Shown one piece after another: positions 962-28,531 of a DNA stretch of 28,531 nucleotides. This stretch comes from Candidatus Nanohaloarchaea archaeon (GTDB lineage: Archaea; Nanohalarchaeota; Nanosalinia; Nanosalinales; Nanosalinaceae): NCBI GenBank assembly GCA_047617745.1, contig JBLGBN010000011.1, forward strand, positions 1-28,531, in the 5' to 3' direction. Under the pieces are notes generated by a model, which saw only the letters and a program-made list of their open reading frames with translations, was not told the origin of the DNA and ran no database searches. How positions within the stretch are numbered: position 1 is the stretch's first letter; each line of letters opens with the position of its first letter. The position numbers and the translations under genes are program-made.

Positions 962-1480
962 ATGGACGAAAATCTTCTGGAGCAGAAAATCGAGGAACTA
1001 ATAGAAGAGAAAGCCGAGAAAATAGAGAAAGGCGAACAACCTGACAGCAAACTCGGCGAACTAATAGAGAAAAAAGTGGAACAGAAAATAGACGATGAAA
1101 AGGAAACAGAAACCGTTCCACAGAAAACCACACGAAGAAACTTCATGAAAATGCTGGGGCTGGGCGCAGGAGGACTGGCGCTTTCATCAGCAGCATCTGC
1201 CAACTTCTTCTCGGTAAACAAGAATGTCGGCGGTAAAACTCTCTCGGATATTCTATCCAATGGAAACGATGCATCCGGAAACTCGATCACAAACCTTGGA
1301 AGCCTGAGCGTTAACAATGACATAACCGCAAATTCGGCGAATATTACAAACCAGATTTCGGCAGGAAGTGTAAGCACAACAGGCACAATTACAGCCGGAG
1401 CCGAGATAGTTCTACCTGACTTAAGCTCCGACCCAAGCGCTTCAACAGGCGCAATGTGGTACAGAAGCGACCTGGAATAA
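962..1480 (+). CDS. Twin-arginine-motif protein with acidic coiled-coil N-terminus and fibre-like C-terminus (172 aa)
   Basis: About 55 aa E/K-rich heptad-like segment, then TRRNFMKMLGLGAGGLALSSAASA (RR at 1133-1138, AxA at aa 78-80), then an S/T/N/G-rich beta-like region ending DPSASTGAMWYRSDLE. Confidence 0.8.
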   Translation: MDENLLEQKIEELIEEKAEKIEKGEQPDSKLGELIEKKVEQKIDDEKETETVPQKTTRRNFMKMLGLGAGGLALSSAASANFFSVNKNVGGKTLSDILSNGNDASGNSITNLGSLSVNNDITANSANITNQISAGSVSTTGTITAGAEIVLPDLSSDPSASTGAMWYRSDLE

Positions 1481-1491
1481 AAGGTGTAAAA

Positions 1492-1950
1492 ATGGTTCAG
1501 ATAGGAACGATAAAACTTCAGACAACAACCGGATCAATTGAAGTACCGGTTTTCGAGATAGCAGATGTTCAGAATGAATCGCTGAGAGTGCAGACACAGA
1601 ACAACGGAGTCGGCGCTTTAAACCTGGTCGACCCCTCAAAGGCCGAACTGAACCAGGTAAGAGTGCAGACACAGAACAGCGGTGTGCTCGCTGTCAGCAC
1701 CACAATTGGAGCAGTACTGGAAACAGATACCGTTCTAAACGGGGGAAATATCAACCTGAAAATATACGAGGACACGGACGGCGACGGATACCCTGAAAAC
1801 AGAGAAACAGTCAGTCTATCAGATGGAACAACCAGCCAGAGCCTGTCACAGATAAAAGCCGATCCTGAAAACGAGATCTGGTTCGAGGTCGAAAAAGAAA
1901 CCAGTTCGGTTGACACAACACCAGAACTGCAGAGAGTGAGGATAGCTTAA
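1492..1950 (+). CDS. Hypothetical protein: three-repeat N-terminal domain plus small beta-sandwich-like domain (152 aa)
   Basis: Start moved to ATG 1492, which follows an AGGTG RBS and the upstream stop. Repeats IKLQTTTG / LRVQTQNNG / VRVQTQNSG; DTDGDG Ca-binding-like motif; ends TTPELQRVRIA; TAATG overlap with the next gene. Confidence 0.75.
   Translation: MVQIGTIKLQTTTGSIEVPVFEIADVQNESLRVQTQNNGVGALNLVDPSKAELNQVRVQTQNSGVLAVSTTIGAVLETDTVLNGGNINLKIYEDTDGDGYPENRETVSLSDGTTSQSLSQIKADPENEIWFEVEKETSSVDTTPELQRVRIA
1585..1678 (+). repeat. 19-bp exact direct repeat agagtgcagacacagaaca (1585-1603 and 1660-1678)
   Basis: Read directly; copies are 75 bp apart, in frame, and encode RVQTQN. Confidence 0.9.
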
Positions 1951-3395
1951 TGGCACTAGAATGGAGCAAAAACGAGGACTGGGACCAGGAACAGGACAAC
2001 ACCGGAGTCATACACGACGAAACACTGCAGCAGGGCTACAAATCAGGTAGTCTGAAGGAAGGACTAGTCGCCTACTACCCTATGGAAAACTCTGGAAGTG
2101 AGATTCTGAGGGATGCAGTAGCCAAGAATATCGGGCAGATCAAAGGAGCGACATGGAACGGGAGCGGACAGGTCGGAAGCGATTCACTAAACTTTGACGG
2201 ATCAAACGACTATATACCAATTCCAGGCTACAAGAGTCCTCTCGACCTACAGGGAGAACTTAGAACAAACTTCACAATCTGCTTGTGGTTCAGAACCAGC
2301 GATGGGAACGCAGGGATCTCCGGAGTGCAGGGGGGAGATGACCCTGATAACGCAGACGGACACGACCGACATATCTATCTCACAAACGGAAATGTCGGTT
2401 TGAGGGTTTACAACAGCGGGGGGTCGAATGCAGAACCTATATCCTCTGGAACTAACTATGCAGATGGGAACTGGCACCATGTAGTCTTTAGAGCAAACTC
2501 AAACGACGGAGTCTACGGCTTTATCGACGGAAACCAGTTTGGATACGACTCAAATACAAGCATCTCTGACTTCACAGGCTCCGACGGATCCTGGTCTAAC
2601 CTTTATCTAATGATCGGACACTCCCAAGACGGCTCCAACCAGTACTTTACAGGCGAAATCGATGATGTTCGAGTCTACAGCAGACCGCTTTCGCACCAGG
2701 AAATTCAGGCATTATACAACCTCACCTCTCCAAGTGGCAGAGAAATAACATCCAAAGATGTACCCGGAAATGAAAGCGGCGGAATTTCAAGGTACAAATT
2801 CAACGGCGACGTAACGGATTCCTGGAGATCGAATGACGGGACCGATAACACGAGCGCTGGCTATGTTAACGGCGTCTACGGTCAGGCAAAAGATTTTGAC
2901 GGGAGTGATGATGAGGTAAACCTTCCTAATCTAGGGATTTCTGGAAACGATTCACATAGTATCTCTATCTGGATGAAAACTTCAGATTCAACAAATCAGA
3001 CACTGTACTTTCAGGGCGATAGATCAACGGATAGCCAAATAGATTTTATCTATCAAGGAGGAACACCTCAATTCAATTACGCCTTTTACAGTAATGACTT
3101 AACCTATAATGTAAATCTACACGATGGAAACTGGCATCACCTAATTGGTACCTATAACGGATACATTAGAAAGTTATATTTAGATGGAAAACTGGTAGCC
3201 CAAGATCAACCTAGTTCTCCCTCAATCGTGAATGACGATTTCAGTGTTGGTTATAGAAGAGCCAGTAATAGTTCATACTTTAACGGCGCCCTAGATGACC
3301 TGAGACTCTACGATCGAGCACTCTCACCCCTTGAAGTAGAAAAACTTTTCCATCTCGGATCTAGAAGAATCAACAGGAAAGAGGTGCTGCACTAG
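1950..3395 (+). CDS. LamG-like jellyroll (concanavalin A-like) protein, two domains, no signal peptide (481 aa)
   Basis: LVAYYPME...FDGSNDYI...DGNWHHVV...FTGEIDDVRVYSRPLS, and a second unit RYKFNGD...DGNWHHLIGTY...FNGALDDLRLYDRALS. Confidence 0.9.
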   Translation: MALEWSKNEDWDQEQDNTGVIHDETLQQGYKSGSLKEGLVAYYPMENSGSEILRDAVAKNIGQIKGATWNGSGQVGSDSLNFDGSNDYIPIPGYKSPLDLQGELRTNFTICLWFRTSDGNAGISGVQGGDDPDNADGHDRHIYLTNGNVGLRVYNSGGSNAEPISSGTNYADGNWHHVVFRANSNDGVYGFIDGNQFGYDSNTSISDFTGSDGSWSNLYLMIGHSQDGSNQYFTGEIDDVRVYSRPLSHQEIQALYNLTSPSGREITSKDVPGNESGGISRYKFNGDVTDSWRSNDGTDNTSAGYVNGVYGQAKDFDGSDDEVNLPNLGISGNDSHSISIWMKTSDSTNQTLYFQGDRSTDSQIDFIYQGGTPQFNYAFYSNDLTYNVNLHDGNWHHLIGTYNGYIRKLYLDGKLVAQDQPSSPSIVNDDFSVGYRRASNSSYFNGALDDLRLYDRALSPLEVEKLFHLGSRRINRKEVLH

Positions 3396-3396
3396 A

Positions 3397-6087
3397 ATGG
3401 GCTTAATCGGATGGTGGCCTCTCCATGAGAACTCGGGGAAAGCATACGATCTATCCGGAAAAGAAAATCATGGGAGTGTTAACGGCCCAGTACAGGGAAT
3501 AGCTGCGAAAGGCGGGCTCACCGGCTACCACTTCGATGGAACCGATGACTATGTGGATCTACCCTCAATTGCGGATCTCGATTTTGCCATTGAGGCTTAC
3601 ACAGTAAGCGCATGGATAAACCCCGATAACTCCAGCTCGCAGACATTTGCATCTAAACATCCGGGAACACACCCTGTCGGATTCAGACTCTCCCATTCCA
3701 ATGAAAGGATAAACTTGAGAACAACCGACTCAAATGGAAACGGCCCTTCAGCTAATGGAGGCTATGCACCAGCCAATACCTGGACACACGTGGTAGGTAT
3801 CGTAGCTCGGGACTCCCGTGAATTCATCGAACTTTACGTTAATGGAGAAAAAGTAGATAGAAAATCTACCGCGAGTATAAACGACGACACTTCTAACGCC
3901 AACGGATTACTGGGAGATATAACTACAACGGCAGCAACACCCTACTCGGGATCACTAGCAGACTTCAGAGTATATGACCATGTATTAACACCCTCTGAAA
4001 TACGAGAACTCTACGAACTTGGCGGAAAAGCAGCCGCACCGGAGGACGGAGTATCGAGGTACAAACTCGACGGTGATGCAACAGATTCCTGGCATTCAAA
4101 TGATGGAACAGTGAATGGAACAACATTTACAAGCGGATACTACAATCAAGCAGCAAGATTTGATGGTAGCTCTAACATTAAAACCGGTATAACAGACAAT
4201 TTACAGACAGGAAACTTCAGCGTCTCCGCATGGATGAAAATACCCTCCTTTGCCAGTAACGGCACCCGAATTGTGGCTGACGACAAAAACGGGAATGGCT
4301 GGGCTCTTTCATACGGCGATGCCGGAGAAAATTCGATAAGATTCTTTGTCCGGGGTATGGACAGTACTTCACTTGATGCCACAAACACAATTAATTCAAC
4401 AAACATCTGGTATCACGTAGTAGGCGTATTTGACAACGATAATAACAACCGATTTATCTTTATTAACGGCAAAAAAGAAGGTGCGATCACTTCTGACAGC
4501 GGAACACCAACAACAGATTCTGGAAATATTTACCTAGGTGCTTCAGGAAGCGGAAATAACCTCATCGGAGAAATAGACGACGTTCGGATATACGACCGAG
4601 CACTGAAAGACTGGGAGGTTAAAGCTATTTACAGAGGCTACAATGACCTTGCGACTCCGCCAGGAAAAGAGGATCCTGACGCAGTTTCAAAATACAAGTT
4701 TGACGACAAAATATCATCAGGCGCAGTAGATTCCTGGGGATCTAATGACGGCACAATAACTGCCGGGATTTACTCTAATGATGCAATTAGAGGCAAATCT
4801 ATGAACTTTGGTGGATCGGATGAATACGTAGATATAGGAAACTTCGGCTTTGACTCGTCTACAAGCTTTACATGGTCTCTTTGGGCTAAACCAGAGGATA
4901 CAAATAACGCTCCAGTAATGGGACGTTATGATGGGTCAGATGACCTAGTACAGTTCTATTACGTAACAGATGATAGATGGATCTTCAGATTAGGTCATGT
5001 TGGAGGAAATGACCATAATGTAGCCGGGGGGAAACCTAATGTCGGTAGCTGGGACCATATAGTAGGAATGTACGACCCCGCAGGACCAACATCTCAAATT
5101 TACGTAAACGGAGAATTAGTCGACCGACAAACAGGAACTATCGACGACTTCGCTACTTCTAACCCTATCTATATAGGGGGTAGAGGAGGATCAACCAGCT
5201 TCTTTAACGGATTAATAGACGATGTGAGAATCTACAACAGGACACTGACACCTCATGAAGTCCAGCAGCTCTACCAGTGGGGAACCCGAGGAAGAGATAT
5301 GCGAAATTTAACCGCCAACAGTAAATCCGCCGGATTTGGAACTGTTACCAAAACTTATACCACCGCACAACAGCATTCCGTAAATGTACCAGATAAAGCT
5401 AGTAAAGCAACAATTAAAGCATGGGGTGGCGAAACTAGGAATTCAGACTTTAATTTTCAAATCCATGGAGGTTATACAAAGGGGACTCTAGATGTTTCCA
5501 ATATTGATTCTATGGAGGTATTTGTAGGTGGTGAAGGCGGGATGCCAAACGGTGGATTTAACGGAGGAGGTGACGGTGGAAGCGGAGATAGACACGATGG
5601 AAGCGGTGGAGCTGGAGCTAGCGACGTTAGAACTGGAGGTAGCTCACTATCTGATAGAATAATTGTAGCAGGAGGAGCAGGAGGAGAAAGTAATTCGGAT
5701 GGAACAGCAGGAGGAGCAGGTGGCCCTGATACCGGAGCTTCTGGAAAAGGAGATGATGCAGAACCCGGGACCGGCGGAACTCAAAGCAGTGGAGGTGCCG
5801 GTGGAAGCGGAAGCGGTGCTGGAAACGGTAGTGACGGCAGTCTAGGGACTGGAGGTGCCGGTGGAGATGCACTCAATAACGGAGGAGAAGGAACTGCAGG
5901 AGGAGGTGGAGGAGGAGGGTACTACGGAGGAGGTGGAGGAGGTGCAAACGGAAATAATTTCTATGGCGCCGGTGGAGGAGGCGGATCAAATTATATCGAC
6001 TCAACATTAACTAATACTCAAAGTCAGCGTGGAGTAAGTGCAAACAATAATGGGGATGGAAAAGTAGTTATAATCTTCAAAAAATAA
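3397..6087 (+). CDS. Three LamG-like domains plus C-terminal glycine-rich (ALK/LTK-type, polyglycine) domain (896 aa)
   Basis: Three units ending ADFRVYDHVLT, IDDVRIYDRAL and IDDVRIYNRTLT. C-terminus has GGAGASDVR...DRIIVAGGAGG...GGGGGGGYYGGGGG...GGGGGSNYI...GDGKVVI. Confidence 0.9.
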   Translation: MGLIGWWPLHENSGKAYDLSGKENHGSVNGPVQGIAAKGGLTGYHFDGTDDYVDLPSIADLDFAIEAYTVSAWINPDNSSSQTFASKHPGTHPVGFRLSHSNERINLRTTDSNGNGPSANGGYAPANTWTHVVGIVARDSREFIELYVNGEKVDRKSTASINDDTSNANGLLGDITTTAATPYSGSLADFRVYDHVLTPSEIRELYELGGKAAAPEDGVSRYKLDGDATDSWHSNDGTVNGTTFTSGYYNQAARFDGSSNIKTGITDNLQTGNFSVSAWMKIPSFASNGTRIVADDKNGNGWALSYGDAGENSIRFFVRGMDSTSLDATNTINSTNIWYHVVGVFDNDNNNRFIFINGKKEGAITSDSGTPTTDSGNIYLGASGSGNNLIGEIDDVRIYDRALKDWEVKAIYRGYNDLATPPGKEDPDAVSKYKFDDKISSGAVDSWGSNDGTITAGIYSNDAIRGKSMNFGGSDEYVDIGNFGFDSSTSFTWSLWAKPEDTNNAPVMGRYDGSDDLVQFYYVTDDRWIFRLGHVGGNDHNVAGGKPNVGSWDHIVGMYDPAGPTSQIYVNGELVDRQTGTIDDFATSNPIYIGGRGGSTSFFNGLIDDVRIYNRTLTPHEVQQLYQWGTRGRDMRNLTANSKSAGFGTVTKTYTTAQQHSVNVPDKASKATIKAWGGETRNSDFNFQIHGGYTKGTLDVSNIDSMEVFVGGEGGMPNGGFNGGGDGGSGDRHDGSGGAGASDVRTGGSSLSDRIIVAGGAGGESNSDGTAGGAGGPDTGASGKGDDAEPGTGGTQSSGGAGGSGSGAGNGSDGSLGTGGAGGDALNNGGEGTAGGGGGGGYYGGGGGGANGNNFYGAGGGGGSNYIDSTLTNTQSQRGVSANNNGDGKVVIIFKK

Positions 6088-6096
6088 TGCGATAAA

Positions 6097-7908
6097 ATGA
6101 CACTAATAGGATACTGGCTGTTGGACGAAGACTCCGGAAGCACAGCTTACGATGCTTCAGGAAACGGAAACAATGGTTCTCTAAATGGCGGAATAACTCA
6201 GGGCGAACCAGGAATTCTTGGAAGGAGCGCTTACAGCTTCGATGGATCTGATGATGCTGTAACGATAAGTGACTCCCAGATCCTGAAACTGACTGGAAGC
6301 CTCACCATCAGCATGTGGGTCAACCCGAACAATCTTGGTGCGCAGAGAGAAAATCCGATCCATAAAGCCTATGGAGGAGAGTTTTCCTTTGTTTTTGAAG
6401 ACACAAATGATGATCCAGCAGGAACATTGAGCACATACTTCGGATCTGCCGGAGGGAACGCCAGCCCTTACGCACATAATCAGTGGACAGATGTAGCCTC
6501 TGACAATACCTGGACTCATCTATGCTGGGTTAGAGACAATAATGCACAGGAGGTGAGACTGTACAAGAACGGTACTAGATGGTCTAAGAATAAAATACAG
6601 ACAGAGTGGGAAACTACTTCAGCCAGCAACAACGATATGCAGATCGGAAGCGGATACACCAATACGTTTGATGGAAGCATCTCAGAGGTCAGACTCTATA
6701 ACCGTGCATTAACATCTTCAGAGATACAGTACCTTTACGAAGTATCACAGAGAGGTAGATATGTCTCAAGTAAAAAGAAAATACAGAATATTATTGATTT
6801 AGGTGTTAATTCGCCGGTTTCAGGACAAGTAGTTTCAGGAACCACAAGTATCGACATACAGGCTTCAAGCAGCGCCGGATCAATAAGTTCAATCGAAGCA
6901 GATGTAAATTCGAACAACATTGGTACAGCTTCTTCCAGTCCAGCCTCTTTCAGCTGGGATACAACAACAGCTTCTGGCGGAGCGAATAATCTGACAGCAA
7001 CCGCCTCAGACGACGCAGACAACTCCCGAACCGAAGACGTTTCAGTAATAGTTGACAACACACCGCCATCTGTATCATTCAGTAATCCGAGCGACGGAGC
7101 TACAGTAAGCGACACCGTTACGGTTGAAGGAAATAGCTCCGATAACGAGTCTTCAGTGAAACGCATGGAACTACAGATAGACAGTTCAACGCTCACAACC
7201 TCTAACAGCAACACACTTTCCTACAGTTTAGATACTACGAACTACTCCGATGGCGATCACACACTTAATCTGGACGCATCAGACAAGGGAGATAACACCG
7301 GTAATTCCAATATAACTATCACCATCAGCAATCGTGTCGACACTTCTGTGGTCCTAGATGACTTCGAGGATGGTGATACTAACGGCTGGAGCATAACTGA
7401 TGGCGACAATATAGGCACCTGGAGTGCAGTACAAGACAGCTCCATGGAAGGAAGTTACCTTGCGAGAGCCTCAGTAAACGGAAGTGAGAACGATACTAAT
7501 TTCGAAGCTTCTAAAACTATAAGTAATGACTACAGGAAAAACATAGAATTTTATTGTGCTGTTTCAAATGACACAAACGACGACTTTGACACAAGTAGAG
7601 TCGAAATAATCGATCACGAAGGTAACTCTTGGGGTTATATTGAATGGGAGCAGAATGGAGGCACACTTCGAGCAGATGCAGATGGAGATTATGAGCTACT
7701 AAGTAGTTGGAGTGAGGGAACTGTATACCATATTGAATTACAAGCCAATGGAGATGGAACGTGGGACATCTATGTAGACGGGACGTATCAGAATACAGCC
7801 CCAGGATTCTCTAGCACTGGTTTTACAGGGGTTACGCTAGAGAATGGTGTATACGGAAGTGGCGGGTCTAGAGACATGGATCTGGACTATATCCGGCTCT
7901 GGGGGTAA
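6097..7908 (+). CDS. LamG-like domain, two bacterial Ig-like domains and a C-terminal lectin-like beta-sandwich (603 aa)
   Basis: LIGYWLLDEDSGSTAYDASGNGNNG...FDGSISEVRLYNRALT. Ig-like units SPVSGQVVSGTTSI...WDTT and DNTPPSVSFSNPSDGATVSDTVTV...LDTTNYSDGDHTL. Final domain VLDDFEDGDTNGW...DLDYIRLW. Confidence 0.88.
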   Translation: MTLIGYWLLDEDSGSTAYDASGNGNNGSLNGGITQGEPGILGRSAYSFDGSDDAVTISDSQILKLTGSLTISMWVNPNNLGAQRENPIHKAYGGEFSFVFEDTNDDPAGTLSTYFGSAGGNASPYAHNQWTDVASDNTWTHLCWVRDNNAQEVRLYKNGTRWSKNKIQTEWETTSASNNDMQIGSGYTNTFDGSISEVRLYNRALTSSEIQYLYEVSQRGRYVSSKKKIQNIIDLGVNSPVSGQVVSGTTSIDIQASSSAGSISSIEADVNSNNIGTASSSPASFSWDTTTASGGANNLTATASDDADNSRTEDVSVIVDNTPPSVSFSNPSDGATVSDTVTVEGNSSDNESSVKRMELQIDSSTLTTSNSNTLSYSLDTTNYSDGDHTLNLDASDKGDNTGNSNITITISNRVDTSVVLDDFEDGDTNGWSITDGDNIGTWSAVQDSSMEGSYLARASVNGSENDTNFEASKTISNDYRKNIEFYCAVSNDTNDDFDTSRVEIIDHEGNSWGYIEWEQNGGTLRADADGDYELLSSWSEGTVYHIELQANGDGTWDIYVDGTYQNTAPGFSSTGFTGVTLENGVYGSGGSRDMDLDYIRLWG

Positions 7909-7972: not shown

Positions 7973-8725
7973 ATGTCTAAAGACGAGGTAGAGCTAGGTG
8001 GAGAAAATGCCGGCGAGGATTACGAGGTAGTGCCGGTTGGACCTATCAGAAAACTTGAGAGAAGAATTGACGAAATCGAGACGAAGGGAACAGGAGGTTC
8101 CGCCGACGACGAGCTTATAAGAGACGTTCTGGATATAATGAAATCCAACCAGAAAATCGTCAACGACATGACAGAATCCACCCACGAGCTCAAGAACTCT
8201 GTCGAAGACCTGACCCACAAAATGGACAGCGTAATTGACAACCTGAACTCTTTCATGGATCTTCTGGAGGAAGCTTCGGAAGCAGACATGGAGGGCGAGG
8301 TAATCAGCGATGTACACTCCAGAATTGCAGATGCAGTTGGAAGTGAAATGCAGTCCGTAGCAGATGATATCAAGGAGTCAAACAGAGAAGTTGTTGATAA
8401 CCTTCAAGATCTGAACAAGAGCATCAAGAGATCTTACACCGCGCAGAACAAGGAAAACACTTTATCGAAGAGTAATCTTGGAGGTAAAGGGCAGCAGGAA
8501 AGAAATCCGCAACAGCAGCAGGGAAGATCACAGAACAACAGCCAGGGAAGAGGTAACAAAGGTCAGGGCCTGAATATCGATAGAGGTTCTAACCAGAACA
8601 GCAACCAAAGATCAGGCAGAGGAAACAGGAGCGGCGGAAACGATCAGCAAGGACGCGGAAACCAGGATTCTGACAGGATGAGAAAGCTGAAGGAAAGATT
8701 TGACAAGATGGATGATGACCAGTAA
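7973..8725 (+). CDS. Coiled-coil protein with Q/N/G/R-rich low-complexity tail (250 aa)
   Basis: YEVVPVGPIRKLERRIDEIE followed by long acidic heptads, then a roughly 70 aa disordered tail. The stop overlaps the first pilin gene. Confidence 0.8.
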   Translation: MSKDEVELGGENAGEDYEVVPVGPIRKLERRIDEIETKGTGGSADDELIRDVLDIMKSNQKIVNDMTESTHELKNSVEDLTHKMDSVIDNLNSFMDLLEEASEADMEGEVISDVHSRIADAVGSEMQSVADDIKESNREVVDNLQDLNKSIKRSYTAQNKENTLSKSNLGGKGQQERNPQQQQGRSQNNSQGRGNKGQGLNIDRGSNQNSNQRSGRGNRSGGNDQQGRGNQDSDRMRKLKERFDKMDDDQ

Positions 8726-9197
8726 AGGATTAAGTTCCGTTATTGGCGCAGTACTTCTCATATTTATCAGCGTTGCAGCAGCTACTTCTGCCTGGACATT
8801 TATAGATACTTTAACAGAACAAACACAGGACAATGTTCAGGACCAGGTTAATGAGCAGAACAGGGAGACGCAGTCAGAGCTCACCAGCGAGATCGGATAC
8901 AACGGGAGTCACGGTTTCACCATCATAACCCTTAGAAATAGTGGATCTCTAACGCTGCCTGTACAGACAGAGGATGGGGAAAAAACAGTGAATATGTACG
9001 TTAACGGGCCGCCACAGGACTGGGAGTTCATGAACGACCGTTCCGGATTAGTGGAACTGGATCCTACTGAATCACTTCCTATCAACACGACAGAAAAATA
9101 CCCTTCAAACGGGGATCAAGACAGCATACGATTTGAAGGACCTTACGGGACCTCTACAACGTATGTATGCTATAATTCGGGTACAGCCTCGTGTTAG
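8715..9197 (+). CDS. Archaeal type IV pilin-like protein (class III signal peptide)
   Basis: MTSKG|LSSVIGAVLLIFISVAAA; start is ATG 8712 or 8715; LRNSG motif; ends C-x7-C. Confidence 0.88.
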   Translation: MTSKGLSSVIGAVLLIFISVAAATSAWTFIDTLTEQTQDNVQDQVNEQNRETQSELTSEIGYNGSHGFTIITLRNSGSLTLPVQTEDGEKTVNMYVNGPPQDWEFMNDRSGLVELDPTESLPINTTEKYPSNGDQDSIRFEGPYGTSTTYVCYNSGTASC

Positions 9198-9206
9198 TTA
9201 TTTAAA
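9198..9206 (+). promoter_or_regulatory. Putative TATA box for the 9230 pilin
   Basis: TTATTTAAA ends about 24 nt before ATG 9230. Confidence 0.5.
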
Positions 9207-9229
9207 CAGGAACCGGTAAAACCAAACTA

Positions 9230-9799
9230 ATGAACAGAAAAGGTATTACACCTGTAATTGCAGTTGTTCTACTGCTCCTAATTACAGTTGGAGCGGTTGC
9301 CTCAGCATACGGTCTTTACCAGAGTATTATCAGCGATCAGAGCCAGATTGATCAGTTGAATGCTCAGCAGAGAGCTTCACAGACAAACATTGATTTCAAC
9401 TCTGTGTACTCAGGTCAACACGGATACATAAACATGGATGTATCCAACACCGGCCAGAGAGCAATCAACGTGACCAAGGAGTTATCGTTTAGAGTTACAC
9501 CAGACGGTTCAAGTAGCGGTCTGGCGTTCACAACCTTCAAGAGAAGGTTCAACGACACCGGTTACGGAGAATGGAACAGTTCAGAGGTTAATGAAGGGCT
9601 TGACTGCCTGCAGAGCAATCCTTCACCTGACGGACTTAGAATAGCAAATCAGGGAGGAAACCCTATGAACTGTAACACGACAATCAGGTTCCCATCAGCG
9701 ACACAGACAGTTGGATTGACACTGAACTACCGGGGCGCAGATAACACAGAGTGGACTTACTCTTGTAACCCAGGAACTTCAGACACAATCTCCTGCTAG
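9230..9799 (+). CDS. Archaeal type IV pilin, probable major pilin
   Basis: MNRKG|ITPVIAVVLLLLITVGAVASAY is a canonical archaeal pilin N-terminus; VSNTG motif; four Cys, the last one terminal. Confidence 0.92.
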   Translation: MNRKGITPVIAVVLLLLITVGAVASAYGLYQSIISDQSQIDQLNAQQRASQTNIDFNSVYSGQHGYINMDVSNTGQRAINVTKELSFRVTPDGSSSGLAFTTFKRRFNDTGYGEWNSSEVNEGLDCLQSNPSPDGLRIANQGGNPMNCNTTIRFPSATQTVGLTLNYRGADNTEWTYSCNPGTSDTISC

Positions 9800-9809
9800 G
9801 ACCGTTCAC

Positions 9810-9832
9810 ATTTAATTTCTCTTTTTTATTTT
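9810..9832 (+). terminator. T-rich terminator after the 9230 pilin
   Basis: tttaatttctcttttttattttc immediately downstream of the stop. Confidence 0.55.
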
Positions 9833-9840
9833 CCCGACAC

Positions 9841-9848
9841 TTTATATT
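9841..9848 (+). promoter_or_regulatory. Putative TATA box for the pilus assembly operon
   Basis: TTTATATT ends about 24 nt before ATG 9872. Confidence 0.5.
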
Positions 9849-9871
9849 CCAGATAACTGATATAATAGAGT

Positions 9872-10549
9872 ATGAAAGGGCAGGCGCAAGCAGTTACCGC
9901 CGTACTTATAACCAGTGTCATAGTTGGTGCAATAGCCACCTCCTACACCTGGGGAGTACCACTACTTGAGAAACAGCAGAGCCAGGCAGAACTGGAGAGA
10001 ACACAACAGAATGTGTTGAACCTTTACGACAGAATAATAGAGGTAAGTGAAAGCGGTGAAGGTACCACCGCGAGAGTTGACGTAACAGACGGCATATCTA
10101 CCTCAGAACTAACTTTTCGCGTTAATGAGAAGCAAAACTATATTGACATAGTGAAAAGGGATTCGTCCCAAAATCCTCCTTACCCATTCGATACATGGAC
10201 CTTGATCAGAGGTAACACAATGCAGAACCTCTCCACAGGCAGCGGAGCTTATGCGAGGAGTGGAGACGATCTGCCGGGCGTAGTAATTGTAAGGCCTATA
10301 GGAGGACCGGATAGATCGACTATAACCTACAGGGTTGAATTCCGGAATATACTGTCCGAGAACCCATCAGGAACCCAGCTATCGAGGATAAACCTAACCG
10401 CCGAAGGCCAGACCCGGAGTACCGGGGAAACCACATTGTTTATATCTAACCAGGGAACCAACTGGGAAAGAGGTAATGAGGGAGTAACTCTTCCAAACGG
10501 GGAAATAGTTCCTCGACAAAATACACAGATCGCAGTGGGATTCCGGTGA
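9872..10549 (+). CDS. Minor pilin-like protein (class III signal peptide)
   Basis: MKG|QAQAVTAVLITSVIVGAIATSYTWGVP followed by a helix and a beta-rich domain. Confidence 0.82.
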   Translation: MKGQAQAVTAVLITSVIVGAIATSYTWGVPLLEKQQSQAELERTQQNVLNLYDRIIEVSESGEGTTARVDVTDGISTSELTFRVNEKQNYIDIVKRDSSQNPPYPFDTWTLIRGNTMQNLSTGSGAYARSGDDLPGVVIVRPIGGPDRSTITYRVEFRNILSENPSGTQLSRINLTAEGQTRSTGETTLFISNQGTNWERGNEGVTLPNGEIVPRQNTQIAVGFR

Positions 10550-10555
10550 TAGACC

Positions 10556-10951
10556 GTGAAAGGACAGTATCTCGCGGTTGAAAGCGTTTTAACTGTAGGT
10601 ATGGGTATAACCTTGGCCTTTGGAACTATAACCATGTTTGATACCTATCAGGAGAATGTAGAAAGATCAACTGTCGACAAACAGGTTGAGGAAACCCAGT
10701 ACAGAGTTAAAACAGCAGTATACAATCTGAGAGGTGTAGATTCCGGTAATGCTCAGATAGAGCTACCGGAGAAACTGGGTGGTCTGAACTACAACCTCGC
10801 TCTTGATGAGGACATCATTATATCTACCCCAGAAGACAGTTACAACTCATCCCTAGGAAACCTCGAAGAGTATGAAACGCGGGGATCAGTGCAGGGGGGA
10901 ACAGTAATATTATACAAAAGCGGAAATCAATATACACTGAGGTCGAACTAA
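10556..10951 (+). CDS. Minor pilin-like protein (class III signal peptide)
   Basis: GTG start; MKG|QYLAVESVLTVGMGITLAFG; IELPEKLGGLNYNL segment. Confidence 0.82.
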   Translation: MKGQYLAVESVLTVGMGITLAFGTITMFDTYQENVERSTVDKQVEETQYRVKTAVYNLRGVDSGNAQIELPEKLGGLNYNLALDEDIIISTPEDSYNSSLGNLEEYETRGSVQGGTVILYKSGNQYTLRSN

Positions 10952-12661
10952 ATGTCATTCAGCTTCCTTAGCCTGAGCGAGAAACTGAGAAGGGTGAAAT
11001 ACCCAGAACTCTACGAAGATGAAGAAGAGGAGGAAATAGAGGAAAACCCTGACGGCGTAGAGGTACCATCACCAGGTAAATTCAGCCCTAACATGGTTAA
11101 GGAGGACGAGGAAAACGACCAGAGTCTGGCAGACACAGATATTGTTTACCCTCTCGTACCTGCCGACCCGGACGAAGGAGAGCTGGTCTACGCATGGGCA
11201 CATATCAAATGGAGTGACCGGCAGGGGGAGCTTGTATACAAAGTTATAGAACCTGAGCTGAATCCAAGTACCGAAAGAGCACTTGACAAGATCAAGATGA
11301 TACTTGAGAGAAGCTTCGATGTCAACTTCACAGATCTAGAAACAGAGGAGGCGGAGGAGTACCTGCAGGAGAAGATAGATCATATCACCGACAAGTACAA
11401 TATTTCACTTACTGACGAACAGCGGAAGGTAATAAGATACTACGCGAAAAGAGACTTCGCAGGGCTGGGACGGCTGCAACCGCTTATGAACGACAAAGAG
11501 GTCGAAGATATTTCATGTGACGGAGCCGGGATACCGGTTTACGCGTACCACAGAAACCCGAAATTCGGTTCTCTGAAAACCAGTATTGAATGGGATAACC
11601 CTGAAGAACTGGACAGTTTTGTTATGAAACTGGCGCAGAGATGTGGTAGATCGATCTCGGTTTCCTCCCCGCTTCTGGATGGATCGCTTCCAGACGGCTC
11701 AAGAGTGCAGGCGACACTTGCGACAGATATTGCCCGTAAAGGATCCAACTTCACTATCAGAAGGTTCACAGAAGATCCATTGACACCTATACACATGATG
11801 GACTTCGAGACGGAGAACGCACAGATAATGAGCTATCTCTGGACTATAATCGAACACGAGAAATCAGTGCTTGTCTGTGGAACAACCGGCGCCGGTAAAA
11901 CTTCGCAGCTCAATGCTTTGTCACTTTTCATCCGTCCTGACAAGAAGATTGTATCTATCGAGGACACCCCGGAGTTAAGACTCCCTCACGACCACTGGGT
12001 GCCGGAAGTCGCACGTTCCGGGTTCGGAAGCTCGGTTGAGGAAGGCGGAGAAGTATCAATGGACGACCTGCTTAAAGAATCGCTACGTCAGAGACCGGAG
12101 TACATCATCGTCGGTGAGGTCAGAGGTGAAGAAGCTTACATTCTATTCCAGCAGATGGCAACAGGACACACAGGTCTCAGTACGATCCACGCCGATTCAC
12201 TTGACATGCTTATGGACAGACTAACAACGAACCCGATCAACCTCTCACCATCGCTTATCGAGACTCTTGACGCTATTATGCTGATCAAGAGGATCAGAAG
12301 AGGCGATAAATATATTAGACGGATTACAGGTCTCTACGAGGTAGAGGGGTACAACAAGAGAAGCGGGATTGATGCGAACCAAGTTTTCGGCTGGGATTCC
12401 CACACTGATACTTACGAAGTCAAAAACAATTCGATGCTTCTAAAGGAGATCGTTGAACAGACAGGCGGAGACGAAGAGCAGATCAAGGAAGAACTCAAGA
12501 AGAGACAGCATGTACTGAACTACATGCAGGATGAACAGATAAAGCATTACAGAGATGTCGGAGATGTAATATCAAGATACTACTCAGATCCACAGTCAGT
12601 ACTGGAAGATGTTGATAAAAGCCTTAACTCGACAGAAAACGAAGTTGATGTAAAGAGTTAA
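10952..12661 (+). CDS. Type IV pilus assembly ATPase (PilB/FlaI/VirB11-like)
   Basis: Walker A GTTGAGKTS, SIEDTPEL, LRQRPEYIIVGEVRGEEA, ATGH...STIHA, LPDGSRVQAT. Confidence 0.95.
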   Translation: MSFSFLSLSEKLRRVKYPELYEDEEEEEIEENPDGVEVPSPGKFSPNMVKEDEENDQSLADTDIVYPLVPADPDEGELVYAWAHIKWSDRQGELVYKVIEPELNPSTERALDKIKMILERSFDVNFTDLETEEAEEYLQEKIDHITDKYNISLTDEQRKVIRYYAKRDFAGLGRLQPLMNDKEVEDISCDGAGIPVYAYHRNPKFGSLKTSIEWDNPEELDSFVMKLAQRCGRSISVSSPLLDGSLPDGSRVQATLATDIARKGSNFTIRRFTEDPLTPIHMMDFETENAQIMSYLWTIIEHEKSVLVCGTTGAGKTSQLNALSLFIRPDKKIVSIEDTPELRLPHDHWVPEVARSGFGSSVEEGGEVSMDDLLKESLRQRPEYIIVGEVRGEEAYILFQQMATGHTGLSTIHADSLDMLMDRLTTNPINLSPSLIETLDAIMLIKRIRRGDKYIRRITGLYEVEGYNKRSGIDANQVFGWDSHTDTYEVKNNSMLLKEIVEQTGGDEEQIKEELKKRQHVLNYMQDEQIKHYRDVGDVISRYYSDPQSVLEDVDKSLNSTENEVDVKS

Positions 12662-12662
12662 G

Positions 12663-13529
12663 ATGCTAGAGAAATACGCAAACTTCTGCTACGATCAGAT
12701 CGGGCCTTATGCTCTTGAGATGGTCGAGTACTTCGAGGACTTGAGACCGCAGCTCTCGAAGGCGAACATATCTGCATCACTCCCCGAATACATCAGCATG
12801 ATGCTTTTCACAACCGGGGCGATGTTCGTCGGAAGCCTGTTCTTACTAGGGACGTTTCTCTCGCTTATAATGGGTGCCTCCGGATTTATTCTTGCCATAA
12901 CTCTCTCGCTAATCCTTCCAATGGGAACACTAATCCTGCTCTACATCTACCCTTCCATACTGATAAAGCAGAGAGCATCCAAGATAAGAGACACACTACC
13001 CTTCGCAACAATGTACATGTCAACGCTTGCAGGAACCGGCACCTCAATCTCGGAACTTTTCAAAAACATGGGCGAGGTCGAAGAATACGGTGAGGTTTCT
13101 AAGGAAGCGGCAAAGATCAGCCAGGATATTGAGACCTTTGGAATGGACATAAGCGAGGCGCTCCAGAGAGCAGCAGAAAGAACCCCAAGCGACGATTTCA
13201 ATGACTTGATGTGGGGAATGAACCACGCACTCACCTCTGGAGGATCGCTCCAGGCTTTCCTGCATGAAAGATCAGAAACCCTTATGAAGGACTACCAGAG
13301 AAGAATCGAATCTTTCTCAGAGCAGCTATCCCTCCTAGTTGAAATGTATATTACTGTAGTAATTGTCGGCTCCATCGTCTTCACATCAATGAGCGCGGTT
13401 ATGGGAAGCTTTATCTCCGGAAACATACTCGTACTTGTACAGATAGTTGCAATATTCATCGGACTGCCTCTAATCTCTGGGATGTTTATACTACTGGTAA
13501 GAGGGATTGCTCCAGGAGGTATAAGGTGA
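12663..13529 (+). CDS. Type II secretion system F family membrane platform protein (TadB/PilC-like)
   Basis: Multiple TM helices; LPFATMYMSTLAGTG, YGEVSKEA, ALQRAAERTPS; directly follows the ATPase. Confidence 0.92.
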   Translation: MLEKYANFCYDQIGPYALEMVEYFEDLRPQLSKANISASLPEYISMMLFTTGAMFVGSLFLLGTFLSLIMGASGFILAITLSLILPMGTLILLYIYPSILIKQRASKIRDTLPFATMYMSTLAGTGTSISELFKNMGEVEEYGEVSKEAAKISQDIETFGMDISEALQRAAERTPSDDFNDLMWGMNHALTSGGSLQAFLHERSETLMKDYQRRIESFSEQLSLLVEMYITVVIVGSIVFTSMSAVMGSFISGNILVLVQIVAIFIGLPLISGMFILLVRGIAPGGIR

Positions 13530-13533
13530 TACC

Positions 13534-14568
13534 GTGTTCGAATTCTTCACCGAGGAAAAACTACAGGCAGGAAGAACGAAGGCCGAGAAACTGATAATCG
13601 GTTCCGCAGTACTGGGAGCGATACTTGTTATCAGCGGAATAGGAATCTACCTGATGGAGGCTCGACAGACAGGTGGATCGATAATAATCCTTGGTATGAT
13701 AATAGGGGTGCTCCCCTACGGAATGGTATCTTTCTTCCGGAATAGAGCTGTCAGAGAGGTTGAAGACCAGTTCCCCTCATTCCTGAAAGACCTCGCCGAG
13801 TCAAAAAGAGGCGGTATGACCCTTATACAGGCGTTCGAATCCGCCAAGGAAACGGACTACGGACGGTTAAACTCTGAAACTGAAAAGATACATAACGAAT
13901 TAACCTGGGGTATACCTTTCCCGAAAGTAATGGAAAGATTCTCGATCAGGATGAGCGATTCCGCTGTTATACAGGAGTCGGTTTCAATCCTTCTCCAGAG
14001 CTTCAGAAGTGGCGGGAACATCACCAAAACGATAGAATCAATCGCTGAGGACTCAGCCAACCTGAAAGAGGTCATACAGAAGAAAAATGCTCAGACCAAG
14101 CAGCAAATCCTCATCATGTATGTTATCTACTTCCTTTTCGTGGGAATTACAATAGGAGTCTACCTTATGCTTGGCCAGATGCTTGGACTCGGAGAACCGG
14201 GCGAAGGAGCGGTGCAGAATATTGACGAGGTCCTGGGAAGCGGCGAAGGCGGTGTCACAAACTTCTGCAACGGCCAGATAATTTACGCTCAACCTCTCTG
14301 CACAATCTCAGAGATCTTCGGATTTGTACCTGACCAGGCAATCAACGAAGGACTGGCCAGTGACTACTCTGAGGAGTATAAATATGGCCAGATGGCCTAC
14401 TATAAGGGGTTGCTATTCGCTATGCTTATGATACAGGGAATCTGCACAGGAGCAGTCGCCGGTCAGATAGGAGAGGGAAGTCCATCCGCCGGCATTAAAC
14501 ACGCAATGGTTATGCTGCCGATAGCATTCCTGGTATTCATGTATATGGTAGGGCTGGCAGGTGTATAG
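13534..14568 (+). CDS. Type II secretion system F family membrane platform protein (TadC/PilC-like)
   Basis: EDQFPSFLKDLAESKRGGMTL, DYGRLN, LTWGIPF, AGQIGEGSPSAGIKHA; extended loop containing a Cys pair. Confidence 0.92.
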   Translation: MFEFFTEEKLQAGRTKAEKLIIGSAVLGAILVISGIGIYLMEARQTGGSIIILGMIIGVLPYGMVSFFRNRAVREVEDQFPSFLKDLAESKRGGMTLIQAFESAKETDYGRLNSETEKIHNELTWGIPFPKVMERFSIRMSDSAVIQESVSILLQSFRSGGNITKTIESIAEDSANLKEVIQKKNAQTKQQILIMYVIYFLFVGITIGVYLMLGQMLGLGEPGEGAVQNIDEVLGSGEGGVTNFCNGQIIYAQPLCTISEIFGFVPDQAINEGLASDYSEEYKYGQMAYYKGLLFAMLMIQGICTGAVAGQIGEGSPSAGIKHAMVMLPIAFLVFMYMVGLAGV

Positions 14569-14569
14569 A

Positions 14570-15442
14570 ATGAAAAACCTCTTGGTGAAAAAAAGCACAG
14601 GACAGCTTAACTTGGAATTTCTGGCAGCTGCAGGCCTTTTCCTGGCAGCAGTGATCGGCTTAGTAGCATCCAACCAGCTGCTGCCTGGTTACGACGACAA
14701 TATGGACAGAATGGGGCTTAACCTTGAGGCCAAAACGGTATCAGATCAGCTAATAACGGAACCCGGTCGTCACAGCTATGGTGAAGGAGACCATGTCTGG
14801 GAGAGAAATGACTCCACGCTATCGAATATTGAAGCCGTGGGTATAGCCTCCGGACACCACGAACTGGATAGAGAGAAACTTGAAATGCTCAAGACAACGA
14901 CCCGTCCCAGCGGAGCAGAGGGGCTTAATTACACCCAGTTCAGGGAAATAACCGGCGTAGATAACCAGTACCGGTTCAACTTTGTATGGCTTCCCACCAT
15001 CCAGACAAACCACTCCTTCATCAAGGGCGACCCTCCAGACAACCCGAACATAATCGAACCAGGAGTATCTGAATACGCTGCCGCAGATAACCGCGTCCAC
15101 TACGGCTCGGTAACCTTACAAGGACAGAAGTACAACATGCTAGTAACCTCACACGATGGAACGTATGACTCACTGCATGTCAGACAGGGTGACTGGGACT
15201 TCAGCAGTATAAACACCGGACCAGACGGCGAACCTTACAATCTGGGAGACAGAATACTTGAAAACGATTTTGTAGTGGAAAGATTTCAGAACAGGGAGAA
15301 AAGCCGCGGAGAATTCGTGGTTTGGCGCAGAAAAATCAAAGATTTCGGCCCCACAACTAACGCAGATACAGAAGTCATTACCATGAACCGGCTGGCAGTC
15401 CTGGAGGGGGAACCGGTAAGAATCGAGGTGTCAGCATGGTAA
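14570..15442 (+). CDS. Minor pilin-like protein (class III signal peptide, Q+1/E+5)
   Basis: KKSTG|QLNLEFLAAAGLFLAAVIGLV; SDQLITEPG motif; start is ATG 14570 or GTG 14585. Confidence 0.8.
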   Translation: MKNLLVKKSTGQLNLEFLAAAGLFLAAVIGLVASNQLLPGYDDNMDRMGLNLEAKTVSDQLITEPGRHSYGEGDHVWERNDSTLSNIEAVGIASGHHELDREKLEMLKTTTRPSGAEGLNYTQFREITGVDNQYRFNFVWLPTIQTNHSFIKGDPPDNPNIIEPGVSEYAAADNRVHYGSVTLQGQKYNMLVTSHDGTYDSLHVRQGDWDFSSINTGPDGEPYNLGDRILENDFVVERFQNREKSRGEFVVWRRKIKDFGPTTNADTEVITMNRLAVLEGEPVRIEVSAW

Positions 15443-17271
15443 GAAGGAAAGGAGCCGGCTACATGATAGAGGTAATGACAGCCCTCCTCGTAATGTTTGG
15501 ATTTATACTCGGAAACGCTCCCTCCGACCCTGCAACCGACTGGAGCAACTTCCAGAAAGAGGTTATAGCCGAAGATTTCACCTATGTAATGGAGAAAACC
15601 GGTGATACAGAAAGCTTTATCCGTGGAGGTGAGACCGGTTCACTGGTTACAGCGAGTGAAGCACTTAGCCGGGATCGGGTCACCGCCTCCGGAACAGTTG
15701 AAAACGTCCCGATAAGCAGGCAGACAGTTGGATTCAATATAAGAGAGATCGACAGATACAATGAAACCGTAGAGCCCGTAGCCGATCTGGGAGATCAGTG
15801 CTACCAAGACGATGATCTCGAAGAACTCTCCGACAACTCGGATATACTGAGAACTGTCAATGAAAGGGCGGGAGCCTACATTTATGTAACGGACAGTAAC
15901 CCTAGTATTTCAACCGGTAATACCAACGAAGACTATGACACCGTATGGGTTGACAACGGCACTAGATGCCAGTTCTCCTCGGCAGAGGGTCCTTACTACC
16001 GGGACGAATTTCTCTACTGGGGGGACGGACCGGGCGGAGACCACTGGGAGTTCAACGAAATATACTACGACGACAGCAGTAACGAAGGTGACCTCGAACT
16101 CTATAACTCAACCCAGATAATCCGGCTAAAGAAAGTGCTGGAAAGCGAGGTAAACGATATAGACACCGGTGTAGAGGTTGACTCAGTAGCAGTCGATCGG
16201 GAAGATCTTGAGGACTACGACATACTGGTTTTCAGAGAAAGAGGGACACTTACGACCGGTGTGCTCGATGAAGATCCTGGAAAAGTCCAGGATTTCATGT
16301 CAGATGGATCAGTGCTCTTGATGATGGATCTGGAGAGAACAGATTTCTACGACACAAACAACAATCTTAGAGACAACTTCATAACCAGTACAGGTCTGAA
16401 ATGGGTGGATATGCCGTACCGGATAGATTACAGGGATAATCCCGGCGATTCCGTTGGAGGTAGCTTCACAGATGAATCTGAATCAGAGACCTTGCAGACC
16501 TACTTCAAAGGTGTGAACGGCGACCTTGGAAACCTTAATCTAACTCCTGCCGGTAATATCAGCTCATCCAACAGCCAGAAATTTAAACGTTCAGAGGCTC
16601 TACTGTCCAGCGATCAGGGCGCCTACCAGATAACCGAATGGAATGTCACCAACTACAGCATGCAACAGGTCGATCCTGCAAAAATTGACGGCTACCCTAA
16701 CACAGCCTGTGTTGAAGATGGAACTGTTGACGGAAACCTTACCCGCGGCAACTTCAGCTTCCAGGAATATGAAACCGGCGAAAAAGTTGAATACAGAGCT
16801 ATAAGCACAAAACTAGGTGAAGACGACAAGTTCTGCAGCGAAAACGACATACGTGCGTTAAACATCGATCTGAACCGTAACGGGGATTACGGCGATCAGG
16901 GGGAGGGCGCTTTCCTGAATGGCGAATCACATACAATTCTCGGCAAGAGATACACTGTTTACTTTCCCAGCGAAGAAGCAATCCAGAACGGTACCGCAGC
17001 AGAGTTTATCTACACAGGGGACAGCGATATAGAGGTTATAAACTACAGAACAAGCTTTGAAGGCTTCCCGGGCGACAAACTTGCAAGGCTCGGCTACAAA
17101 GAAAGATATAACGCTGCGGAGAAAAAGATGATCTCCTCTGTTATTCACTGGCTCTCTGAGGAAACCACCGAGTTCGGCGCCCAGGAGGAAACACAGATAT
17201 CAACAGAAAATATAGGCGCGGTGAAAGAAAACACATTCATGCCGTACCGGATAGCCTTGAGGTGGAGATAG
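15436..17271 (+). CDS. Large pilin-like/adhesin protein with class III-like signal peptide (611 aa)
   Basis: MVRRKG|AGYMIEVMTALLVMFGFIL followed by a long acidic extracellular region with four Cys and a DLNRNGD motif. Confidence 0.78.
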   Translation: MVRRKGAGYMIEVMTALLVMFGFILGNAPSDPATDWSNFQKEVIAEDFTYVMEKTGDTESFIRGGETGSLVTASEALSRDRVTASGTVENVPISRQTVGFNIREIDRYNETVEPVADLGDQCYQDDDLEELSDNSDILRTVNERAGAYIYVTDSNPSISTGNTNEDYDTVWVDNGTRCQFSSAEGPYYRDEFLYWGDGPGGDHWEFNEIYYDDSSNEGDLELYNSTQIIRLKKVLESEVNDIDTGVEVDSVAVDREDLEDYDILVFRERGTLTTGVLDEDPGKVQDFMSDGSVLLMMDLERTDFYDTNNNLRDNFITSTGLKWVDMPYRIDYRDNPGDSVGGSFTDESESETLQTYFKGVNGDLGNLNLTPAGNISSSNSQKFKRSEALLSSDQGAYQITEWNVTNYSMQQVDPAKIDGYPNTACVEDGTVDGNLTRGNFSFQEYETGEKVEYRAISTKLGEDDKFCSENDIRALNIDLNRNGDYGDQGEGAFLNGESHTILGKRYTVYFPSEEAIQNGTAAEFIYTGDSDIEVINYRTSFEGFPGDKLARLGYKERYNAAEKKMISSVIHWLSEETTEFGAQEETQISTENIGAVKENTFMPYRIALRWR

Positions 17272-25509: not shown

Positions 25510-26182
25510 CTAGATATTATGACTATGAGGCGGGGTTGCTCGACAATGTAAATCAAGACTTGCAGAAGAGTAGTTACCAGCACTTACCTTGACCTTAATC
25601 ACTGGGTATGTCCCGCCAAAGGAAAACTCTCCGCTATTTGATTCACCATTACTTAAACTAAAAGACTCATTGACAGTACTTCCATCAGCAAACGTTACGG
25701 TAAATGAGGATGAAATAGTACCATTATAGCCATCGTTACTAGCACTAAAACTTGCTTTATTAGCAATCCAGAATCCGCTCTTTGAGCTAGTAGAGCCGCC
25801 ACTACTATTAGAACTAGAAACAATGTTCGATATATAACCAGATTTTGAGGGAGAAAAGTTCTGTGTACTGCTGGGGCCGAGATTATCTGCATTTTCTCCA
25901 TCCACCAAGTCCGCATCTATTTCACTTGTTCCTTGACTGCTGGGCTGAATCAAAGACCAAGCAGAAGCTACCGAAGATAGCCCAATTACTCCTGCACCTA
26001 GACCAGTCATCTTCATGAATTTACGGCGAGAAAGCTTCTCCTGCGCATTAGCATCGTCTGTGCCACCTGTTGTTTCCTGCTTGATTTCTTCTCGTATTTT
26101 TTTTCTTCTCTTCCCTCATTTGTTCTTGAACTTTCTGCTCTACTATCTCTTCTAGCCGATTTTCTATGGCTTTGTCAGGCAT
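25510..26182 (-). pseudogene. Frameshifted (A8 tract) twin-arginine-motif fibre-like protein; 223 aa if one A is removed
   Basis: ATG 26182 follows GGAGG (26195-26199) and gives MPDKAIENRLEEIVEQKVQEQMREEKKK. Removing one base from the T8 run at 26097-26104 joins it to IREEIKQETTGG...LSRRKFMKMTGLGAGVIGLSSVASA and the 168-aa ORF. Confidence 0.8.
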
Positions 26183-26555: not shown

Positions 26556-26580
26556 GAATCCAGAATTAGGTCAAATACTC

Positions 26581-28529: not shown

Positions 28530-28531
28530 GA

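Follow-up and report, generated by a model that had tools for sequence, protein, structure and literature searches.

It is still an open question by what means a DPANN symbiont recognises its host and holds on to it, and a five-gene operon of a Candidatus Nanohaloarchaea archaeon offers a small, testable unit in which to ask it: can lectin-type proteins that have no export signal be carried to the cell surface by a neighbour that has one, and what would they bind once there? The operon lies at positions 962 to 7,908 of a 28,531-nucleotide stretch of DNA (GenBank assembly GCA_047617745.1, contig JBLGBN010000011.1, forward strand), hereafter the window, which is contig C11 of an 834-kb genome that is 88.6% complete. 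A sequence-only reading had proposed that the product of gene 1 is exported by way of twin-arginine translocation (Tat), and that the four signal-less products assemble with it in the cytoplasm as fibre, adaptor and lectin chain and leave the cell together, possibly as a derivative of a viral tail. We find that the locus is real and maintained, and that a Tat carrier with a cap protein, encoded by genes 1 and 2, is well supported computationally. Overall, we lean towards a maintained chromosomal surface-recognition module, made of halovirus tail-fibre-tip parts and exported in folded form by a minimal TatA-TatC system.

The five co-directional genes are as tightly coupled as first claimed, with re-measured gaps of 11, -1, 1 and 9 nt. 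Their parts are listed below, where DOCK and IGX are names coined in this analysis and the LamG counts (2, 3 and 1 for genes 3, 4 and 5) are those of Pfam:

962..1480, +, gene 1, putative Tat carrier, 172 aa: 57-aa acidic N-region, predicted Tat signal at about 1127-1201, short beta-rich shaft, truncated fibre tip at about 1400-1477
1492..1950, +, gene 2, putative adaptor, 152 aa counted from the ATG, no signal: N-terminal three-repeat cap domain at aa 1-73 (DOCK), then an 80-aa beta-sandwich (IGX)
1950..3395, +, gene 3, 481 aa, no signal: conserved N-terminal Trp motif and two LamG domains (PF13385)
3397..6087, +, gene 4, 896 aa, no signal: three LamG domains and a conserved tail peptide; C-terminal domain glycine-rich (Pfam PF12810, ALK/LTK)
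6097..7908, +, gene 5, 603 aa, no signal: LamG with a conserved tail peptide and two Big_7 Ig domains; at the C-terminus a beta-domain related to tail-fibre/VP1 proteins of hafunaviruses
25510..26182, -, second gene-1 paralogue in the window, TIGR01409 at 23.5 bits

An export-like signal is found in gene 1 only, as had been claimed. Genes 2-5 have no hydrophobic segment (best Kyte-Doolittle 19-residue window 0.5-1.3), and no alternative start would give them a signal, since the in-frame upstream extensions are short (24, 12, 19 and 3 residues) and all polar. A C-terminal anchor was found in none of the five proteins.

A predicted fibre trimer and its cap

The N-terminal domain of gene 2 consists of three internal repeats, and the prediction made before folding was that these repeats cap a trimer of gene 1. 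The complex of a gene-1 trimer with gene 2, a check that the sequence-only reading had called for, was modelled from three copies of gene 1 residues 110-172 and one of gene 2 residues 1-76; it scored 0.89, against 0.01 for the best of three controls. Runs agreed in at least 98% of contacts, and the partner had a pLDDT of 88 or more. In calibration, 116 of 157 solved pairs came up to the mark and so did 2 of 215 mismatched ones, counts that apply only roughly to a trimer modelled with custom alignments. Strands 7-9, 32-34 and 57-59 of gene 2 each pair in the model with residues 163-168 of a different gene-1 chain, which supports the binding of gene 2 to the gene-1 trimer, in a complex of about 44 kDa in total. 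The T-even gp37-gp38 cap is the comparison for such a carrier-cap pair. An adhesin likeness within that comparison is stated in PMC8651126.

Gene pairing agrees with the modelled arrangement. Fifteen of 92 complete genes with the twin-arginine signal of gene 1 (RR genes) have a truncated tip, and 10 of these are directly followed by a cap gene, as against 0 of the 77 RR genes without a truncated tip. Six of the 10 adjacent caps have a DOCK domain and four have repeated Trp-Asp-Gly-type hairpins; the match of tip subtype to cap type, 10 out of 10, is overstated by one case, the subtype rule having been hand-adjusted for L035. Passengers of the second cap type, which end in these hairpins, were seen at L036:14964-15866, L037:8862-9644, L071 and L100; their carriers have a different tip subtype, and one passenger has a glycine-rich domain like that of gene 4.

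Gene 2, for which 379 clusters at 50% identity were available, was modelled at pLDDT 92. In fold searches with this model, neither PDB nor BFVD had a match at E <= 0.001; in BFVD, HGTV-1 gp33 ranked second at 2.7e-3. The best VIA Z score, 5.7 (rmsd 3.6, 74 aligned), covered IGX only, so that DOCK was barely probed. Sequence searches of the PDB returned nothing relevant and no solved relative, and the Atlas gave only leads, all under 0.9.

Both partners have relatives in the halovirus HGTV-1. The first 78 residues of gene 2 are 57% identical to the N-terminus of HGTV-1 gene 33 (gp33; E 6e-16), the sole match of this domain in 50,697 phage records, and the last 26 residues of gene 1 are 65% identical to the C-terminus of HGTV-1 gp29; gene 1 also matches a Bacillus phage tail spike, more weakly. 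The genes for gp29 and gp33 are located after the baseplate genes and annotated "hypothetical", and their roles are inferred from this position. Tip and cap are found together in HGTV-1, and also in each of the three IMG/VR contigs with DOCK that were retrieved (L058-L060, of which two are nearly identical); in these contigs a tail gene ends in the same tip, and the DOCK domain follows directly or one gene later. These homologues bear out the fibre-then-adhesin order that the operon had been said to share with viral tail modules.

The C-terminal domain of gene 5 matches 14 halovirus records (best E 2e-4), and glycine-rich tail adhesins set host range in hafunaviruses infecting haloarchaea (PMC8651126). 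The glycine-rich domain of gene 4 had no phage match, possibly owing to the low-complexity filter, and phages and plasmids gave no match to a second DOCK query. PHROG matches are present in gene 4; a Pfam "Toxin_R_bind_N" match in the same gene overlaps a LamG domain and was taken as a fold cross-match. An exact-pattern scan of GTDB genomes returned one locus and was too insensitive to show absence from haloarchaea, and locus L049 was set aside as a spurious match.

Compared with HGTV-1 gp29/gp33 and the adhesins of the Hafunaviridae (PMC8651126), the operon has a near-identical fibre C-terminal tip and adhesin N-domain, the fibre gene before the adhesin gene, glycine-rich and VP1-like domains, and variable binding domains. 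It differs from halovirus tails in being chromosomal, with no virion genes found in searches with Terminase_6N and Baseplate_J, in having a Tat signal in place of the baseplate-binding N-terminus, and in an adaptor that ends in IGX, with the lectin domains on separate genes. Of the suggestion that it may derive from a viral tail, the sharing of the module is supported; as to the direction of transfer, a DOCK tree (98 rows, 78 columns, quick method) did not resolve the branching, and therefore neither names a donor nor orients the transfer as virus to cell or the reverse.

The signal of gene 1 and the Tat machinery

Gene 1 has the motif TRRNFMK at residues 57-63, followed by a Gly-rich h-region and ASA at 78-80, and thus an S/T-R-R-x-F-L-K-type motif with an h-region. 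The signal model TIGR01409 matches at 21.2 bits (cut-off 16.7), and the Pfam TAT_signal model stays below its cut-off (16.6 vs 22.7). Eleven Tat-like motif matches were found in a scan of the genome, and 10 of them belong to the family of gene 1, whose members share a long acidic N-region, an RRxFLK motif, a Gly-rich h-region and a variable beta-rich tail, with R, R, F and K invariant in the 10 paralogues.

A search for tatA and tatC, proposed as a check on the sequence-only reading, found both genes adjacent on contig C16 (TatC E 4e-52, TatA E 4.7e-13), and the next gene behind tatC is a gene-1 paralogue. Two-component TatA-TatC systems are known to work (PMC13673990). Across 70 genomes of the phylum, tatC is present in 20 and a profile of the signals matches 28, namely 18 of the 20 tatC-positive and 10 of the 50 tatC-negative genomes; the profile was built from the 10 signals of this genome, which matches by construction, the 70 genomes are related to each other, and weak profile matches may be ordinary Tat signals. 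The eight single-contig genomes are all concordant, four having both tatC and the signal and four having neither. Twelve of the 18 double-positive genomes have their nearest RR gene no more than about 5 kb away from tatC, and in G059 the tatA-tatC pair is placed inside the orthologous operon. RR-x-F-hydrophobic is intact in 97 of the 98 frames examined, which came from fetched loci (138 matches existed, mainly the stronger were taken, and none was from family f5). Patchy occurrence of tatC has been noted before and explained by salt adaptation (PMC9765267). Taken together, the Tat signal of gene 1 is probably functional.

Expansions of RR genes occur in G065 (30 matches), G035 and G019 (10 each), of which G035 has no tatC match. 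Small Sec-signal proteins ending in Cys-x-Gly-x-x-Cys are often encoded just upstream of RR genes (L015, L018, L036, L039, L040, L046), as are, in the same set of loci, pilin-like proteins with similar ends; both are candidates for an anchor.

LamG proteins as candidate passengers

The synteny check that had been proposed shows that G069 and G047 have the same succession of a carrier, an adaptor and three LamG genes, as does G059 with tatAC inserted. The LamG open reading frames (ORFs) of these three operons are all without signals. Natural fusions link the same parts: signal, IGX and LamG form one ORF in G055 (RR-IGX-LamG), and the Trp motif of gene 3 is fused to IGX in proteins of G055, G019 and G025, the latter two genomes having the opposite gene order. 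None of 158 DOCK proteins has a hydrophobic segment; 37 of them carry a directly fused LamG, 17 an IGX, 2 the gene-5 C-domain and 1 a glycine-rich domain.

We compared the signals of LamG ORFs in eight closed genomes and in the operon's own genome, scoring a 12-residue N-terminal window of hydrophobicity of at least 2.0 as a signal. Left out of the set are four giant ORFs (one of G053, two of G040 and one of G066), two rows that were duplicates (one each from G053 and G051) and a G053 ORF that dropped out in de-duplication. Own hydrophobic signals were present in 17 of 18 evaluated LamG ORFs of tatC-negative closed genomes, the exception being a very long G040 frame, and in all 6 LamG ORFs of G051 and G066, which have tatC and no DOCK. 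The three genomes with both tatC and DOCK-IGX had signal-less LamG ORFs in 3 of 3, 4 of 4 and 40 of 44 cases, and 38 of the 40 signal-less ORFs of G059 carry the terminal peptide of gene 3, 4 or 5. Because signal-less LamG ORFs go with tatC plus DOCK-IGX, and because terminal peptides are common to the G059 ORFs, a carrier-dependent route for these proteins is likely. From the fusions, synteny and co-occurrence, it is plausible that genes 3-5 encode lectin passengers of the gene 1-gene 2 complex. AlphaFold2 on the G055 fusion gave no support to the further idea of a single beta-sandwich made up of IGX, the Trp motif of gene 3 and the tail of gene 5.

The 40 signal-less LamG ORFs of G059 (L034, L116-L135) lie in scattered clusters and fall into three terminal classes matching genes 3-5; the genome has only two RR genes, and it has three DOCK proteins that stand alone, no carrier being seen next to them. 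The tatC-negative G053 (L102-L108) has 46 LamG domains in Sec-signal proteins, which suggests a Sec-based alternative for the same need.

Genes 1 and 2 are under purifying selection: dN/dS against G069 is 0.10 in gene 1 (0.08 in the signal region) and 0.07 in gene 2. The first 70 aa of gene 3 are 87% identical to the G069 orthologue and the whole protein 52%, the LamG core of gene 5 is 27% identical while flanking genes are 86-99% identical, and the G069 orthologue of gene 4 goes no further than the tail peptide and so lacks the glycine-rich domain. This fits a conserved scaffold with replaced binding domains. The site of the locus, flanked by thermosome and pilus genes, is the same in G069. 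It had been noted that no terminase or integrase gene is nearby, and this extends further: Terminase_6N and Baseplate_J had no match in the genome at its 88.6% completeness (other virion families, including capsid, were not searched genome-wide), and the sole integrase of the genome is on contig C1, not on the operon contig.

Two frameshifts were seen in 8-base homopolymer runs. The N-region and RR part of the second gene-1 paralogue in the window are in different frames across an A8 run at 26097-26104, one of only two A/T runs of at least 8 in the genome, and the G069 orthologue of gene 4 is frameshifted at a G8 run (L041:4405-4412). Both may reflect phase variation by slipped-strand switching, or assembly error.

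Mechanism, alternatives and surroundings

The mechanism that we propose begins with gene 1, modelled as a short trimeric fibre with a Tat signal where the viral fibre has its baseplate-binding N-terminus. Each chain would end in a half-finished tip strand; a single gene 2 would cap the trimer, with each repeat paired to a different chain's tip strand, and would cross the membrane as a signal-less hitchhiker. These two steps, resting on the model and on gene pairing, we regard as quite probable. It is reasonably likely, judging from fusions, synteny and co-occurrence, that the LamG proteins of genes 3-5 act as exchangeable lectin heads exported with the carrier; conserved peptides at their termini would attach them to one another or to the second domain of gene 2, and they might leave as sub-complexes, not as a single 255-kDa chain. 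By analogy with viral adhesins, it is also fairly likely that the heads bind glycans on the surface of the haloarchaeal host, and we infer that the exported fibre attaches the nanohaloarchaeon to that host. Retention on the cell could come from an uncleaved signal with a cytoplasmic acidic N-region, or from a separate anchor protein. Of the joint export of fibre, adaptor and lectin first proposed, the Tat machinery, the predicted gene 1-gene 2 interface and the synteny have held up, and the joining of genes 3-5 to the complex rests on fusions and co-occurrence.

Several observations weigh against this mechanism. The 57 residues before the RR motif of gene 1 include 10 basic and 19 acidic ones, atypical for Tat, and the N-region of the family has a median of 47 aa and a net charge of -5 (79 frames); gene 1 thus lacks the hydrophilic, net positive n-region that is a feature of Tat signals. 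A positively charged n-region is described for such signals in PMC13673990, section 6 of which also lists uncleaved or internal signal classes. Cleavage at the ASA site would leave no evident membrane anchor. A tatC match was missing from six genomes that have strong RR matches (E <= 1e-5), among them G035 (10 copies, 90% complete), G043 (97%) and G003 (92%), and nanohaloarchaeal Tat has been judged "likely inactive" (PMC10266531). No cap is adjacent to five of the 15 carriers with a truncated tip; the carrier behind tatC in the operon's own genome is one of these five. The AlphaFold2 model of the G055 fusion (22-row alignment) folds IGX alone, with the Trp motif and tail peptide below pLDDT 50, and a trimer loaded with each passenger once would come to about 255 kDa, where natural Tat cargo ranges from less than 10 to over 140 kDa (PMC13673990).

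The last two points would be expected if only genes 1 and 2 form a Tat-exported pair and the LamG proteins are merely co-transcribed, leaving by another RR paralogue, the neighbouring type IV pilus or some other route, and meeting the fibre outside or never. The type IV pilin/ATPase cluster that follows the operon here and in G069, and the fusion of LamG-IGX modules to pilin-like and Sec signals as well, also favour such a split. Set against it are the near-confinement of signal-less LamG ORFs to genomes with tatC and DOCK-IGX, the kept gene order in G047 and G059, whose fetched stretches showed no pilus ATPase cluster, and the natural RR-IGX-LamG and DOCK-LamG fusions; we consider this explanation unlikely. 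Also unlikely, in our estimate, is a complex that is exported as proposed and then, after signal cleavage, is released or loosely bound, serving in aggregation, in polysaccharide binding or in competing with viruses for host receptors, and not in host attachment. The AxA cleavage motif and the missing C-terminal anchors would suit it, as would several closed genomes that lack both tatC and the whole family in a phylum called obligately host-associated (PMC10266531), and the tie of Tat-exported haloarchaeal filaments with LamG tips to adhesion and biofilm (PMC11821415, PMC12337348). The glycine-rich adhesins of hafunaviruses, by contrast, set host range (PMC8651126), the C-domain of gene 5 matches hafunavirus tail proteins, and the LamG cores diverge far faster than the flanking genes, as parts that bind receptors would be expected to do.

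A decaying provirus or tailocin remnant, with products that stay in the cytoplasm and an incidental RR motif, would account for the clear homology to virus tail genes and for the frameshifts in the G069 gene-4 orthologue and one window paralogue. This reading, which the sequence-only reading had named as a possible refutation, is largely refuted and in our view very improbable: dN/dS is low in both genes and in the signal region, the thermosome-pilus site is the same in G069, no terminase or baseplate match was found for the two families searched, the RR motif is intact in nearly all frames and linked to tatC, and frameshifts in 8-base homopolymer runs fit slipped-strand switching or assembly error.

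Of described systems, the Tat-fimbriae (tafi) of Haloarcula hispanica are the nearest Tat-dependent appendage, with a laminin-G-like tip adhesin and an adaptor subunit (PMC11821415), to which the LamG domains and the putative adaptor of the operon may correspond. TafA, TafC and TafE each have their own Tat signal, where here only gene 1 of five has one, and tafi subunits are beta-sandwich pilins joined by donor-strand exchange, served by a peptidase and an anchor, where here the carrier is predicted to be a virus-type trimer (PMC11821415). Since tafi subunits each have their own signal and a pilin fold, the operon is not a member of that system; the TafC model NF052521 reaches 54.6-98.1 bits against a cut-off of 410, over the LamG part only, and no other Taf model was reported for genes 1-5. 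Tat hitchhikers such as hydrogenase and formate dehydrogenase resemble the arrangement proposed here in that one signal-bearing subunit carries folded partners (PMC13673990, PMC10924467). The cases treated in the portions cited are redox-enzyme heterodimers, not fibre-adhesin assemblies with exchangeable heads, and the N-region here is long and acidic.

LamG genes have been proposed to act in host recognition in Ca. Nanohalococcus occultus (PMC10266531) and also in PMC7443923. The LamG locus tags of Ca. Nanohalococcus occultus lie near tatC (SVXNc_0793 vs 0798-0807), and transcription is recorded at 654 reads per kilobase per million (RPKM) for tatC and 1932-2608 for LamG genes (PMC10266531). 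In the portions cited, its LamG proteins are described as secreted or membrane-bound, Tat as "likely inactive", and no carrier-passenger arrangement is mentioned (PMC10266531). Our literature searches, outside which most subscription journals lay, returned no description of such a system.

If the proposed mechanism is true, a Tat system called likely inactive in a published study (PMC10266531) would have a job, hitchhiker export would extend from redox enzymes to adhesins, and the cell and the viruses of its host would share one receptor-binding toolkit. More tentatively, and as a conjecture that we think doubtful though possible, the minimal Tat system might be kept mainly for virus-type fibres, in a plug-and-socket arrangement of trimeric Tat carrier, pseudo-trimeric cap and interchangeable signal-less lectin heads, some of them switched at homopolymer runs, by which the symbiont would set its host range with the recognition parts of its host's viruses.

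As to the surroundings, the operon is flanked by a thermosome gene on one side and the type IV pilin/ATPase cluster on the other, and the source records of close gene-1 and gene-2 homologues label them Candidatus Nanohaloarchaea. A promoter/terminator scan, not built for archaeal promoters, gave results at chance level. Between operon and pilin cluster, 7973-8725 encodes an acidic, probably coiled-coil protein with a Gln/Asn/Gly-rich tail, 86% conserved in G069 and with no family match above cut-off. In the pilus cluster itself (8712-17579), several genes are pilin-like, one encodes a T2SSE ATPase and two encode T2SSF membrane proteins. Further along, on the reverse strand, 26398-26556 is non-coding and by eye resembles a degraded 5' end of the nuclease-like gene at 24644-25426, and 27084-28531 encodes an FG-GAP/ASPIC-UnbV repeat protein that is cut at the contig end.

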